DNA from: a bacterium
GTDB lineage: Bacteria; Electryoneota; JAOADG01
DNA: 64,000 bases
Assembly (NCBI GenBank): GCA_963681965.1
Contig: OY820579.1
Span: 2,784,001 to 2,848,000, forward strand
Direction of reading: 5' to 3'
In this document: one piece after another, positions 8,300-11,775 of the stretch
How positions within the stretch are numbered: the stretch's first letter is position 1
Layout of the letters: every line of letters starts with the position of its first letter
Notes under the pieces: generated by a model
Databases searched by the model: none
The model's input: the letters and a program-made list of their open reading frames with translations, nothing else
Told to the model about the DNA's origin: nothing
Made by a program: the position numbers and the translations under genes

Positions 8300-9997
8300 A
8301 TGAGTCATTTCGGTACGTACGAGGAAAGTTACGCCAACTTCAATTGGTCGATTTCGGAAAAAGAACTCGATTACAAACCAGGCGACGTAATCAATATTGG
8401 ATGGTACTGCAGCGATCGAATCTGCAAACTCGGTAAAGCGAATAAAAATGCTCTGCTTTGGGAGAACCATCTAGGCGAATCCAAGACCTTCACATATAAC
8501 GATGTTCGAGTATATTCGAATCATGTCGCGTCTTTTCTGCTTGAATTGGGTATCAAACCCGGTGAACGCGTTTGCTTGTTTATGGATCGAGCGCCGGAAT
8601 TGTACATCGGTTTTGTCGGCATCCTCAAGATGGGTGCGGTAGCACAACCGCTGTTCTCGGCATTCGGCGACGAATCGTTGTTTACTCGTCTAGACAACGC
8701 CAAAACTTCTGCAATCTTTACGCAAAAGAAGCATGTCGCTAAAGTTCGCAAGATCTTGAAAGACCTTCCCGAATTGCGTCATATCATCGTGATTGATTCA
8801 CCCGATGGACCCTTCAAAGATCGCGAAATACCATTCACAATGGAAAGCAAGCGCGTCGAAGAGTTTGAATCGTTCCCGAGCACTGCCGAAACGCCCTCCG
8901 TGCTGCACTATACTTCCGGAACCACCGGACAACCCAAGGGTGCACAGCATGTGCATGGTTCATTGATCTCTCAGTACATCACCGCGAAATGGATTCTCGA
9001 TCTCCACGATGACGATGTATACTGGTGCAACGCCGATCCGGGGTGGGTGACCGGTACTTCGTACGGTATCATTGGACCGTGGTCAAATGGCGTCACTCAA
9101 GCGGTGTACGATGCAGGATTCAGCTCTGAAACTTGGTACAAATTTATCGAAAAATATCGCATCAGTGTCTGGTATTCCGCCCCGACTGCAATTCGGTTGT
9201 TGATGCGCGATGGCACCGATATTGTTAAGAAATTCGATCTTAGTTGCCTTCGCCATCTAGCTAGCGTTGGCGAACCACTTAACGCCGAAGCCGTCATCTG
9301 GTCGCAAGAAGCGTTCGGAATCATGTTCCTCGATACTTTCTGGCAGACTGAAACCGGTTGCATGGTGATTACAAATCACCCCGGTATGCCGATTAAACCG
9401 GGTTCGATGGGTAAGCCATTCCCGGGCATCACAGCGACTGTACTCGATCTGAAAACCTACGAACCGATCACTGTTCCGGGACGTGTTGGCTTGATCGCAC
9501 TGAAACCGGGTTGGCCTTCGATGATTCGCACTTACTGGAATAATCCGACTGGGTATCAGAATAAATTCAAGAACGGTTGGTTTATTTGCGGCGACCGTGC
9601 TTCGATCGATCAGGAAGGATATTACTGGTTTGTCGGTCGCGACGATGATGTGATCAATACTGGTGGACACCTAGTCGGTCCGTTTGAAATTGAATCGGCA
9701 TTGTTGGAACATCCTGCAGTTGCCGAATCGGCTGCCGTCGCCAAACCGGATAAAGTAAATATGGAAGTCGTGAAAGCGTTCGTAGCATTGAAACCGGGGA
9801 ACGAACCGACATCCGATCTTGAACTTGAGATTATGAATTTTATCCGCAAACGGCTTTCGCCGTTGGCAATGCCGCAAGAAATCGAATTCGTCAAATCGCT
9901 ACCGAAGACACGCAGCGGAAAAATTATGCGACGCGTGCTTCGCGCGCAAGAGTTTGGTGAACCGATCGGCGACTTATCAAGTTTGGAAAACGATTGA
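8300..9997 (+). CDS. acsA: AMP-forming acetate--CoA ligase-like adenylation enzyme
   Basis: YTSGTTGQPKG, DPGWVTG, VGEPLN, DTFWQTETG, GRDDDVI, LPKTRSGKIMRR. Confidence 0.88.
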   Translation: MSHFGTYEESYANFNWSISEKELDYKPGDVINIGWYCSDRICKLGKANKNALLWENHLGESKTFTYNDVRVYSNHVASFLLELGIKPGERVCLFMDRAPELYIGFVGILKMGAVAQPLFSAFGDESLFTRLDNAKTSAIFTQKKHVAKVRKILKDLPELRHIIVIDSPDGPFKDREIPFTMESKRVEEFESFPSTAETPSVLHYTSGTTGQPKGAQHVHGSLISQYITAKWILDLHDDDVYWCNADPGWVTGTSYGIIGPWSNGVTQAVYDAGFSSETWYKFIEKYRISVWYSAPTAIRLLMRDGTDIVKKFDLSCLRHLASVGEPLNAEAVIWSQEAFGIMFLDTFWQTETGCMVITNHPGMPIKPGSMGKPFPGITATVLDLKTYEPITVPGRVGLIALKPGWPSMIRTYWNNPTGYQNKFKNGWFICGDRASIDQEGYYWFVGRDDDVINTGGHLVGPFEIESALLEHPAVAESAAVAKPDKVNMEVVKAFVALKPGNEPTSDLELEIMNFIRKRLSPLAMPQEIEFVKSLPKTRSGKIMRRVLRAQEFGEPIGDLSSLEND

Positions 9998-10124
9998 TCG
10001 ATTCTGGAGTTGATTCTGGAATTCTATAGTCAATGGTTCGTTAGAAGTGTAATTTGATTTCGCAATTGTCTGGAGTGATCGCCGATTGCTCAGACAAAAA
10101 TATCTAATGTTATTGGAGATGACC

Positions 10125-10382
10125 ATGGCAACTATGCATGAAGCCGTACTGAATTACATCAAGAAGGAATATCTTGAAGAAGACGACGACACCGAAATGA
10201 CCTATGATACGCCATTGATCAGTGGTGGTATCGTCGATTCGTTTTCGATGGTATCGTTGAAAGTTTTTCTCGAGAAAAAATATTTAATTTCGATTCCCGA
10301 TGCGAAGGCAACTCCGCAAGCATTCGATACTGTAAACAAGATTTGCAAGCTGGTCAAAGAATTCCGTCCCGATGCGGAATAG
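10125..10382 (+). CDS. Stand-alone acyl carrier protein
   Basis: Acidic ~85 aa; DTPLISGGIVDSFSMV phosphopantetheine Ser motif; GGAG RBS before the ATG at 10125. Confidence 0.9.
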   Translation: MATMHEAVLNYIKKEYLEEDDDTEMTYDTPLISGGIVDSFSMVSLKVFLEKKYLISIPDAKATPQAFDTVNKICKLVKEFRPDAE

Positions 10383-10462
10383 TCGAATCTGACTGGTCGG
10401 AATACACTCACAACATTCTTTGACAATTGCAGTGTTTTCGATCATCCCGAAAGGAAACAAGC

Positions 10463-11707
10463 ATGGCGTACAAATCTGCGAAAGATATTTTCGCGAAGAC
10501 GATCGACAAGATCAAAGACGATGGTCTATTTAAGACTGAACGATTGATTTGCAGCCCGCAAGGCGCCGATATCAAAGTCCGATTTCCGGCTGATGCTCCG
10601 GAAAAAGAAGTAATCAATATGTGTGCCAACAACTATCTCGGTTTGGCAAATCATCCCGAGGTCGTTAAAGCTGCGCACGAAGCACTCGACATCCGTGGAT
10701 ACGGGATGTCTTCGGTTCGCTTTATTTGCGGCACGCAGGACATTCATCGCGAATTGGAGAAGAAAACTGCGGAATTTCTTGGCAAGGAAGACTGCTGCGT
10801 ATTCGGTAGCTGTATGGATGCCAACGCTGCAGTATTCGAAGTATTACTATCGGAAGAAGATGCAATCATCTCCGACCGCTTGATTCACGCGTCGTTGATC
10901 GATGGTATTCGGCTTTCGAAGGGTCAAAACTTCAACTACAAGCATGCCAACATGGAGCATCTGGAAGAGAAGCTTCAGGAAACGCAGAATTGCCGAATTC
11001 GGTTGATCGTCACCGACGGTGTCTTCTCGATGGACGGCGATACCGCACCGATGGACAAGATCTGTGAATTGGCAGAGAAGTATGAAGCGATGGTGTTGGT
11101 CGACGATTCACACGGTACTGGATATATCGGTAAAACCGGTCGTGGCGTTCACGAATTGTATGGGGTGATGGATAAAGTCGACATCATCACCACCACCTTT
11201 GGCAAGGCGCTCGGCGGTGCTACCGGCGGTTGCGTGGCAGGTCCGGCGGAAGTTGCCGAATTGATGAAACAGCGCGGTCGAACTTATTTATTCTCGAATG
11301 CGATTCCACCGGCAACGGCACTCGCTTCGATGAAAGTGATCGAAATGTTGAGTTCTTCCACTGGTCTGCGCGACAAGCTCGAGAAACTCACTGAATACTG
11401 GCGGAAGGGTTTGACCGAAGCCGGATTTGATGTCAAACCGGGTGATACGTCGATTGTTCCGGTGATGCTGTACAATGCGAAGTTGGCGCAGTCATTCAGT
11501 AAAGATCTGTATGACGAAGGGATCTATGCCGTCGGTTTCTTCTTCCCGGTAGTTCCGGCAGCACAGGCGCGAATTCGTACCCAGATCAGTGCCGGTCATG
11601 AATTCCATCATCTTGATAAAGCACTTGCCGCATTCAAGAAGGTGGGCGCGAAGCACGGTATTCTCGGCATGAAGAAGAAAGATATTATCGCGCGTTTCGG
11701 CGAATAA
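10463..11707 (+). CDS. kbl: Second glycine C-acetyltransferase-like alpha-oxoamine synthase (divergent Kbl paralogue)
   Basis: [56 protein letters not shown] before the ATG at 10463. Confidence 0.85.
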   Translation: MAYKSAKDIFAKTIDKIKDDGLFKTERLICSPQGADIKVRFPADAPEKEVINMCANNYLGLANHPEVVKAAHEALDIRGYGMSSVRFICGTQDIHRELEKKTAEFLGKEDCCVFGSCMDANAAVFEVLLSEEDAIISDRLIHASLIDGIRLSKGQNFNYKHANMEHLEEKLQETQNCRIRLIVTDGVFSMDGDTAPMDKICELAEKYEAMVLVDDSHGTGYIGKTGRGVHELYGVMDKVDIITTTFGKALGGATGGCVAGPAEVAELMKQRGRTYLFSNAIPPATALASMKVIEMLSSSTGLRDKLEKLTEYWRKGLTEAGFDVKPGDTSIVPVMLYNAKLAQSFSKDLYDEGIYAVGFFFPVVPAAQARIRTQISAGHEFHHLDKALAAFKKVGAKHGILGMKKKDIIARFGE

Positions 11708-11745
11708 TTTCTTCACGCATTACTACCATCGTATTACATCAGTTG

Positions 11746-11775
11746 GGGAGGGCTCGCGAGCCCTCCCTTTTTTTT
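11746..11775 (+). terminator. Intrinsic terminator of the acsA-ACP-kbl operon
   Basis: gggagggctc-gc-gagccctccc followed by T8. Confidence 0.9.

Follow-up and report, generated by a model that had tools for sequence, protein, structure and literature searches.

A conserved gene trio of ligase, carrier protein and Kbl paralogue in an Electryoneota genome as a candidate module for a glycine C-acetyltransferase reaction on a private thiol carrier

A stretch of 64,000 nucleotides from a bacterium of the Electryoneota (assembly GCA_963681965.1, contig OY820579.1, positions 2,784,001 to 2,848,000 of the forward strand; hereafter the window, in whose coordinates all positions below are given) harbors three neighboring genes that encode an AcsA-type ligase, a small stand-alone carrier protein and Kbl2, a second glycine C-acetyltransferase-like enzyme. 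Together they are referred to here as the trio. A canonical glycine C-acetyltransferase gene, kbl1, is located next to the trio in the opposite orientation. The trio recurs as a tightly conserved unit in hundreds of bacterial species, most of them uncultured, and sequence comparison indicates that it very probably functions as a module centered on a private carrier. The locus comprises the following features:

6712-7902, minus strand: Kbl1, canonical glycine C-acetyltransferase (TIGR01822, placement in the tree, Asn kept at position 135 of E. coli Kbl)
7903-8299, no strand: divergent intergenic region of 397 bp with a CRP/FNR-like palindrome (read from the DNA)
8300-9997, plus strand: AcsA-type AMP-forming ligase, proposed acetate:[carrier protein] ligase (NF003313, acetate pocket, co-occurrence, fusions)
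10125-10382, plus strand: stand-alone carrier protein of 85 aa (weak NCBIfam matches, AlphaFold/Foldseek fold, invariant D38-S39)
10463-11707, plus strand: Kbl2, the Kbl paralogue of 414 aa linked to the acyl carrier protein (ACP) gene (TIGR01822, ACP-adjacent clade, signature changes)
11745-11777, plus strand: intrinsic terminator of the three-gene unit (stem of 10 pairs including 7 G-C pairs, T run)

The open reading frame (ORF) list of the window gives three co-oriented frames on the plus strand at 8300-9997 (565 aa), 10086-10382 and 10427-11707. The start of the ligase gene is preceded by GAAGGA. The frame of the carrier gene is open from TTG 10086, and its most likely start is ATG 10125 with GGAG 7 nt upstream; the Kbl2 frame is open from TTG 10427 and most likely starts at ATG 10463, after AAAGGAAA. 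Behind Kbl2 a hairpin was found at 11745-11768 with 10 pairs, 7 of them G-C, followed by a T run. The original prediction, made from the window alone, had described three co-oriented genes with ribosome-binding sites closed by one terminator, and this layout was confirmed. It had also stated that the window lacks fab, polyketide synthase (PKS), non-ribosomal peptide synthetase (NRPS) and phosphopantetheinyl transferase (PPTase) genes; accordingly, a Pfam scan of the 48 further ORFs of the window detected no such domain.

Conservation of the trio was surveyed across bacteria using one genome per species. At least 600 stretches were matched, the carrier was confirmed in 566 of 600, and the best 80 loci were fetched. 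Their titles name Aminicenantes, Ignavibacteria, Bacteroidales, Calditrichaceae, KSB1, Zixiibacteriota, Fibrobacteraceae, Chrysiogenales, Planctomycetota, Eisenbacteria, Riflebacteria and others. All 80 loci have a Kbl2-type gene behind the carrier gene in the same orientation, separated by a median gap of 22.5 bp. The ligase gene is located upstream on the same strand in 70 loci, at a distance of not more than 400 bp in 58 of them. Among the ten loci without an upstream ligase gene, three break off at a distance of less than 750 bp ahead of the carrier; five genomes belonging to the other seven were searched, and all five carry an unlinked ligase that is 71-75% identical. A canonical-type Kbl is also present within 30 of the 80 loci and an AcpS gene within 16. 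ORF clustering of the 80 neighborhoods revealed no further widely shared gene, the AcpS cluster comprising 13 loci and the next largest clusters beyond the trio 8 to 11 loci. Conservation in other genomes, on which the original prediction depended, was thus observed for Kbl2 and ligase alike; since the trio recurs in the same gene order across many phyla, it is not a chance or local accident.

The same pattern was found within the phylum of the window, of which 61 genomes were searched, including the genome containing the window. The carrier is present in 13 of them; a further genome, G044, was dropped as carrier-positive because its two weak matches lie inside frames of 572 and 891 aa. Kbl2 adjoins the carrier in all 12 carrier-positive relatives. 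A ligase at least 69% identical to that of the trio occurs in 12 of the 61 genomes, 11 of which are carrier-positive. The twelfth, G055, is 89% complete and consists of 660 contigs; its ligase is located on a short contig and the carrier was not matched. The next-best ligase matches are at most 47% identical and represent the ordinary Acs type of 650 aa, which the window's own genome contains as well. Kbl is present in all 61 genomes, and a canonical Kbl accompanies Kbl2 in 12 of the 13 carrier-positive ones. With the canonical Kbl1 encoded next door, Kbl2 therefore is an addition and not a replacement.

Some trios carry additional genes. A nitroreductase-family gene (PF00881) of about 200 codons is inserted in the trio of three genomes of the phylum, namely in the gap between ligase and carrier in G012 (locus L019, 7727-8362) and in the gap between carrier and Kbl2 in G030 (L022, 9250-9876) and G026 (L024, 9253-9843). 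In two of the three proteins an N-terminal hydrophobic stretch resembles a signal peptide. A PAP2-family membrane protein is encoded before the carrier in L022, where it was identified by Pfam, and in L027, where it was recognized by likeness only.

No Pfam family matched the carrier protein at an E-value of up to 0.001, and a PF00550 search of the own genome found two other ACPs, the trio carrier not being among the matches. NCBIfam carrier models gave weak matches, all below their cut-offs. The best was an ACP of the OlsHI type at 63.1 bits; with a cut-off of 130, identity with this ornithine-lipid ACP was rejected, and OlsH and OlsI belong to a different pathway, as far as described in the excerpts of PMC12493201. 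An AlphaFold model computed with an alignment of 51 sequences (pLDDT 83.9) contains helices at residues 4-16, 39-53 and 70-80. Foldseek aligned this model to the type II carrier PigG (7thn, 7thq, 5gxv) with query-normalized TM-scores (TMq) of 0.81-0.83, to PltL with 0.78 and to the D-alanyl carrier protein 6bug with 0.70. A profile search of the PDB sequences agreed with this result, type II peptidyl and D-alanyl carriers being the nearest solved relatives. Asp38-Ser39, at the start of helix 2, is invariant in all 51 carrier sequences, and the protein is acidic with an isoelectric point of 4.68. At least 8000 relatives, 70-89% identical, are present in the protein collection; the source names listed for them include Ignavibacteria, Acidobacteriota/Aminicenantes, WOR-3, Verrucomicrobia and Bacteroidota.

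To find fusions, longer carrier-containing proteins were compared with the window proteins by BLAST and scanned for Pfam enzyme domains. Ligase-carrier fusions were found in P0271 (661 aa), P0280 (659 aa; six member sequences from five contigs) and P0283 (664 aa). In P0280 and P0283 a complete ligase continues in frame into the carrier, and the ligase match of P0271 covers residues 1-411 only. P0276 and P0285 are fusions of AcpS with the carrier, in this order. Together with the AcpS genes in 16 of the 80 loci, the latter fusions lend indirect support to the assumption that the carrier bears 4'-phosphopantetheine; in the own genome, the single AcpS gene lies apart from the trio. Two candidate carrier-Kbl2 fusions were discarded. 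P0284 is not credible, as it contains long stretches between and behind the matched parts that look out of frame, and probably reflects a frame-shifted gene call; P0277 was too short for judgement.

Kbl2 belongs to the Kbl family by sequence models. It scores 566.2 bits with TIGR01822 (cut-off 493) and 563.8 bits with NF005394 (cut-off 460), Kbl1 reaches 637.3 bits with TIGR01822, and the two proteins are 52.5% identical. For phylogenetic analysis, 138 complete Kbl proteins were collected from 112 loci and the window, 85 of them carrier-adjacent and 53 not; sequences running off a contig or falling outside 380-470 aa were excluded. The tree comprised 96 sequences, namely 41 of the 85 ACP-adjacent Kbls (11 from the window and its relatives, 30 picked randomly), the complete set of 53 others, and Kbl and BioF of E. 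coli. A single branch with an SH-aLRT support of 100 separates all 41 ACP-adjacent Kbls from the 53 others and E. coli Kbl. Kbl1 of the window is located on the non-ACP side together with E. coli Kbl; Kbl2 does not group with this characterized enzyme. When the tree was rooted on E. coli BioF alone, a basal grade appeared and Kbl2 was considered as the ancestral form. This idea was dropped after a tree with 12 outgroups had placed the ACP-adjacent Kbls as a single clade (support 100) within the canonical Kbls, with a weak backbone (values of 0-88). The simplest reading of these trees would be a single origin of Kbl2 from a Kbl of the CoA (coenzyme A) type. In the phylogenetic comparison that the original prediction had proposed as a check, the branch setting the ACP-adjacent Kbls apart was obtained with either choice of outgroup.

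Alignment of the 138 proteins revealed 21 columns that distinguish the ACP-adjacent Kbls from the others. Positions are given in E. coli Kbl numbering. N135 is conserved as Asn in 53 of 53 other Kbls, and all 85 ACP-adjacent ones have Val or Ile there; A133 is replaced by Arg or Lys in 85 of 85 (others: 0 of 53), E160 by His in 85 of 85 (others: 1 of 53) and Y108 by Phe in 84 of 85 (others: 1 of 53). Thirteen positions, which we take to serve in the active site and in binding of pyridoxal phosphate (PLP) and glycine, are identical in all 138 proteins: N50, V79, F81, H136, S185, D210, H213, T241, K244, F273, S274, N275 and R368. E. coli BioF has Ser and His at the positions of V79 and F81. As these two and the other active-site residues are unchanged and BioF differs, a core of the glycine/acetyl type is kept in Kbl2. 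The BioF residue is matched by 8 of the 21 Kbl2 states and by 5 states of the canonical Kbl consensus; in view of the tree, the BioF-like states are read as convergence or chance.

A longer form of canonical Kbl was observed in 13 carrier-less relatives (loci L112-L124). These 'long' canonical Kbls of 413-415 aa are 57-61% identical to Kbl2 and possess a Kbl2-like C-terminal extension, yet position 135 is occupied by Asn. Just upstream of the Kbl gene, 5 of the 13 loci contain a full-length gene of the cluster of threonine dehydrogenases of the short-chain dehydrogenase/reductase (SDR) type, encoding 326-335 aa, and three more loci contain shorter pieces of this cluster.

The ligase contains the Pfam domains AMP-binding and AMP-binding_C. 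It scores 738.4 bits with the acetate--CoA ligase model NF003313, barely above the cut-off of 729, and 493.2 bits with TIGR02188, under the cut-off of 724.95. The nearest solved relative is an acetyl-CoA synthetase of 572 aa (9g79, E-value 7e-165). Fifty-seven trio ligases, the window ligase included, were aligned with E. coli Acs, and reference residues 191, 194, 310, 311, 386, 414, 526, 584 and 609 were verified; numbering follows Acs of S. enterica and E. coli. V310, T311 and V386, which presumably line the acetate pocket, are kept in 57, 57 and 56 of the 57 trio ligases, and W414 in all 57. Hence, the short-chain pocket Trp that the original prediction had noted in the window ligase is shared by all 57 trio ligases. 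W414 sets the acyl range and restricts the enzyme to short acyl groups, and R191, R526 and R584 are important for CoA binding, according to passages of PMC10455477. The catalytic Lys609 is present in 57 of 57 sequences. The residues in contact with CoA gave a mixed picture. R191 falls in a poorly alignable stretch. R526 is replaced by Leu in 57 of 57 trio ligases and was considered as a mark of lost CoA use; this was rejected, because Leu was likewise found in 7 of the 21 more distant ligases that were drawn from a search of 1.84 billion representatives, and is therefore not diagnostic.

Thirteen positions are fixed in the trio ligases and rare in 23 others, and 7 of these 13 lie within residues 487-524 of the C-terminal subdomain. 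In enzymes of the ANL superfamily (acyl-CoA synthetases, NRPS adenylation domains and luciferases), carrier proteins dock on the C-terminal subdomain, and the trio-specific positions 487-524 may thus mark a putative carrier-docking part. Strict co-occurrence and the in-frame fusions are indirect evidence that points to the carrier rather than CoA as the thiol acceptor of the ligase.

In G030 the ligase is split into frames of 487 aa and 92 aa (L022, 5760-7447), and in the survey loci L054, L076 and L097 it appeared as two separate tblastn pieces. These split ligases may be either frameshifts of draft assemblies or decaying genes.

Genes for acetate and threonine metabolism were found around several trios. 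An acetate transporter gene (NF038013) is located directly behind Kbl2 in 5 of the 80 loci, all of the Bacteroidales type, and another one (PF01184) occupies this position in G003, a member of the window's own family. Six Ignavibacteriaceae loci contain a Zn-type threonine dehydrogenase (NF003808), and in one Zixiibacteriota locus a zinc-containing alcohol dehydrogenase-family gene lies immediately upstream of the ligase. A search of the own genome detected no Zn-type Tdh. An SDR-type Tdh is encoded at C1:1618749-1619690; it is 50% identical to the gene of a relative whose product has L-threonine dehydrogenases as best PDB matches. The own genome also possesses thrC, ackA, a canonical Acs of the 650-aa type, an acetate transporter and a pta-like gene (308.9 bits, cut-off 311.2). 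As these genes are kept, the trio adds to standard metabolism; the idea that it replaces standard pathways was rejected.

The comparisons document the conserved and co-occurring genes, the distinct Kbl2 clade, the retained acetate pocket and glycine/PLP residues, the carrier fold and the fusions; from them we infer the catalytic steps of the trio, the acetyl identity of its acyl group and the possible directions of flux. With moderate confidence, we regard the trio as a carrier-centered module that performs the Kbl reaction with a private thiol carrier taking the place of CoA. A PPTase of the AcpS type, whose gene is unlinked here and adjacent in other lineages, would convert the carrier into its holo-form. 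The ligase would adenylate acetate and pass the acetyl group to the phosphopantetheine thiol of the carrier. Kbl2, a PLP enzyme with an unchanged Kbl core, would then catalyze the reversible conversion of acetyl-S-carrier and glycine to 2-amino-3-ketobutyrate and holo-carrier, and a threonine dehydrogenase would join the ketoacid to threonine. That acetyl-carrier and not acetyl-CoA would be the thioester substrate of Kbl2 is suggested by the position of its gene behind the carrier gene in 80 of 80 loci. Two directions appear about equally likely, namely an ATP-driven condensation of acetate and glycine to ketoacid or threonine, which would be pushed by a fully charged private carrier pool, and a breakdown of threonine to glycine and acetate independent of the CoA pool. 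In the original prediction, the ligase was thought to load acetate or propionate onto a dedicated ACP for condensation with glycine or a similar amino acid by the Kbl paralogue, possibly also in reverse. This carrier-dependent reading is supported, as all of its computationally testable parts turned out favorably; the loading of acetyl onto the carrier and the use of acetyl-ACP by Kbl2, in whichever direction of flux, are its putative chemistry.

A private carrier would uncouple the Kbl equilibrium from the acetyl-CoA/CoA ratio of the cell. Tentatively, and with more doubt than confidence, we suggest a wider role for a private acetyl-carrier pool charged by ATP. Freed from this ratio, the Kbl equilibrium might allow either a new assimilation route, in which glycine and imported acetate undergo a condensation to the ketoacid that is unfavorable otherwise and are carried on to threonine, or a fermentation of threonine to glycine and acetate with ATP recovery via the reversed AMP-forming ligase. 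The trio might then represent a carrier branch of central C2 and amino-acid metabolism in many uncultured, anaerobe-rich phyla that arose once from a CoA-dependent Kbl.

Several observations weigh against a module of this kind. Both ligase and Kbl2 exceed the NCBI curated cut-offs of ordinary CoA enzymes. R584, the contact to the 3'-phosphate of CoA, is kept in 57 of 57 trio ligases, and among the CoA-contact positions compared in these sequences no residue was found that proves CoA use to be lost. Two genomes of one genus, G014 (96% complete) and G043 (89%), contain carrier and Kbl2 and no trio-type ligase; therefore, the carrier apparently can work without it. Several signature changes of Kbl2 (135, 112, 208) adjoin PLP-site residues; as such changes are not required by a switch of carrier alone, the acyl or amino substrate may differ slightly. 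Finally, Kbl2 of the window and its family lack 10 of the 21 clade-consensus states. This also affects the motifs on which the original prediction had relied. DTFWQTETG is present in the ligase and VRFICGTQD, DRLIHAS and FGSCMDANAA in Kbl2 as quoted, and DELNHAS, used for comparison, is the motif of the canonical Kbl1; because of the missing consensus states, DRLIHAS and FGSCMDANAA are only local forms found in the family of this genome, and the consensus of the clade reads DRLVHAS and FPSCMDANA.

In locus L026, from the genus of G014 and G043, an AcpS gene (PF01648) and an ammonium-transporter-like gene, the latter recognized by eye, are located upstream of the carrier gene.

The same carrier module might act on other small substrates, for example with propionyl or some other C2-C3 group as the acyl moiety or with glycine replaced by a different amino acid, and with an aminoketone product serving as signal or precursor (aminoacetone-derived pyrazines or similar) rather than as a threonine/glycine intermediate. 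We consider this unlikely. The pocket tryptophan of the ligase should still admit propionate, and seven Kbl2 signature positions (108, 109, 112, 116, 135, 208, 268) are close in sequence to PLP-site residues. The restriction to short acyl groups by this tryptophan (PMC10455477, in part) would also fit, as would the decay of 2-amino-3-ketobutyrate to aminoacetone and pyrazines when CoA is low or a thiol acceptor scarce, which is described in passages of PMC9814548. Against other substrates speak the loop with V79 and F81 that distinguishes Kbl from BioF and the carboxylate-binding residues Arg368 and Asn50, identical in 85 Kbl2 and 53 Kbl proteins, as well as the retention of all four acetate-pocket positions of the ligase. 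Furthermore, acetate transporter genes adjoin Kbl2 in two separate lineages, and ORF clustering of the 80 loci showed no recurring tailoring or export genes.

Still less probable is a function of the carrier as an acetyl hub, into which the ligase, starting from acetate, and Kbl2, starting from threonine-derived ketoacid, would both feed acetyl groups for an unlinked third enzyme that consumes them, for example as primer or acetyl donor. Such a hub would accommodate G014 and G043 with their missing ligase, the linkage of Kbl2 in 80 of 80 loci at an unlinked ligase in 7 of 80, and the Bacteroidales loci, in which a canonical Kbl gene, a few genes further upstream, shares its strand with acpS, ligase, carrier and Kbl2. 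However, no fourth conserved gene emerged from the 80 neighborhoods, where the largest non-AcpS cluster comprises 8 to 11 loci, and a cycle of two enzymes and one carrier is the simpler reading. Very improbable, finally, and already disfavored by the comparative data is an ordinary CoA-using acetyl-CoA synthetase with a second Kbl around an unrelated small carrier: the model scores (738.4 vs. 729 and 566.2 vs. 493) and the universal R584 would agree with it, but it conflicts with the adjacency of Kbl2 (80 of 80) and ligase (70 of 80) across many phyla, the strictly joint occurrence of carrier and trio-type ligase, the separate Kbl2 clade with its fixed changes, the in-frame ligase-carrier fusions, and the retention of canonical Kbl and canonical Acs alongside the trio.

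The trio, read as a module that uses its own carrier, was compared with known systems. The closest characterized one is the AasR/AcpR/SPT triad of Caulobacter and other Rhodobacteria, and the trio is a variant of this known kind of ligase, ACP and oxoamine synthase. As described in PMC9386255, the triad consists of a specialized ANL acyl-ACP synthetase, a stand-alone ACP dedicated to this system and a synthase that prefers acyl-ACP over acyl-CoA; the genes co-occur wherever the synthase is present, and a long-chain fatty acid and serine are converted to 3-oxo-sphinganine for sphingolipids. Measured against this description, both systems combine a co-occurring ANL ligase, dedicated ACP and alpha-oxoamine synthase, the genes being linked in the trio loci, and in both a free acid would be activated on a private carrier prior to a PLP-dependent, Claisen-type reaction with an amino acid. 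In contrast to the triad as described there, the trio has an AcsA-type ligase with an acetate pocket including the Trp, and a carrier nearest to type II peptidyl and D-alanyl carriers among solved structures. Kbl2 furthermore scores far below the cut-offs of the SPT models (317.1 vs. 640, 267.4 vs. 500 and 219.3 vs. 670).

With the Tdh-Kbl pathway (E. coli kbl/tdh) the trio shares a Kbl2 that passes TIGR01822 and keeps the 13 active-site positions checked, and threonine dehydrogenase genes, which are present in some trio loci and, as the SDR type, in the own genome. Canonical Kbl, however, uses free CoA and requires neither carrier nor ligase, whereas Kbl2 forms its own clade, lacks Asn135 and is additional to the canonical enzyme in 12 of 13 genomes. 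The best structural matches of the carrier, PigG, PltL and DltC (TMq of 0.70-0.83), are loaded by a separate ANL enzyme, namely PigI and PltF, as taken from the titles of PDB entries, and presumably DltA in the case of DltC. Those enzymes load amino acids (proline, D-alanine); the trio ligase is instead a relative of acetyl-CoA synthetase with an acetate pocket, and the enzyme downstream is a PLP-dependent alpha-oxoamine synthase. Acetate is also ligated to a carrier in citrate lyase, where CitC uses ATP to attach it to the thiol of the dedicated carrier CitD, which serves one lyase reaction. CitC is not known to be an ANL enzyme, the prosthetic group of CitD is phosphoribosyl-dephospho-CoA and not phosphopantetheine, and no homology to the trio is claimed. 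A search of the literature, in which subscription-only papers were not covered, found no ACP-dependent Kbl or acetate-ACP ligase system.

Automatic annotation names the three proteins acetate--CoA ligase, acyl carrier protein and glycine C-acetyltransferase, and metabolic reconstructions therefore place the trio in ordinary CoA metabolism; this affects Ignavibacteria, Aminicenantes, Bacteroidales, KSB1, Zixibacteria, Calditrichota and other groups. Should the carrier-dependent function hold, the acetate/glycine/threonine node would be misplaced in the metabolic models of hundreds of species, and a two-carbon thioester reaction of central metabolism would for the first time be shifted from CoA to a dedicated ACP. 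The trio would then provide a small, tractable three-protein system to study why cells sequester a thioester pool, and would extend the toolbox of biocatalysis by an acyl-ACP ligase for short chains and an alpha-oxoamine synthase that depends on an ACP.

Regulatory elements were sought in the 397-bp spacer between the divergent kbl1 and trio. A palindrome TGTGA-N6-TCACG is located at 8259-8274 and precedes the start of the ligase gene by about 25 nt. The genome G001 of the same genus contains a perfect TGTGA-N6-TCACA at the equivalent site, and the palindrome is conserved only there; G003 and G002 contain nothing alignable to it. We consider the palindrome to be a putative operator. An Rfam scan of 5000-14000 found no family in 7903-8299, and thus neither riboswitch nor leader; at E-values of up to 1, the only matches in the scanned region were sub-threshold, on hairpins at 11664-11861. 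Right behind the terminator, a long near-perfect inverted repeat extends over 11778-11850, and a second G+C-rich hairpin is present at 11939-11956. Rfam gave only sub-threshold matches of the microRNA type on these repeats, which may be elements similar to repetitive extragenic palindromes (REP) or miniature inverted-repeat transposable elements (MITE).

Further away from the trio, a two-ORF insertion sequence element occupies 12658-13808 on the minus strand, about 900 bp downstream of the terminator. Its ORFs contain HTH_Tnp_1 (13533-13808) and an integrase core of the rve/rve_3 type (12658-13533, both by Pfam); the element presumably belongs to the IS3 family. Upstream, components of a phosphotransferase system are encoded at 1558-5232, comprising EIIC-Sor-like and EIID-like proteins and a full enzyme I. 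Five further proteins are encoded at 5307-6131, 14302-16380, 43801-46470, 46608-49814 and 60153-60926. Four of them carry the C-terminal sorting domain of type IX secretion (PF18962), and the exception, 5307-6131, has a FlgD-Ig-like C-terminal domain. Among these proteins, two contain BNR/Ycf48-like repeats and one an M36-like peptidase domain.

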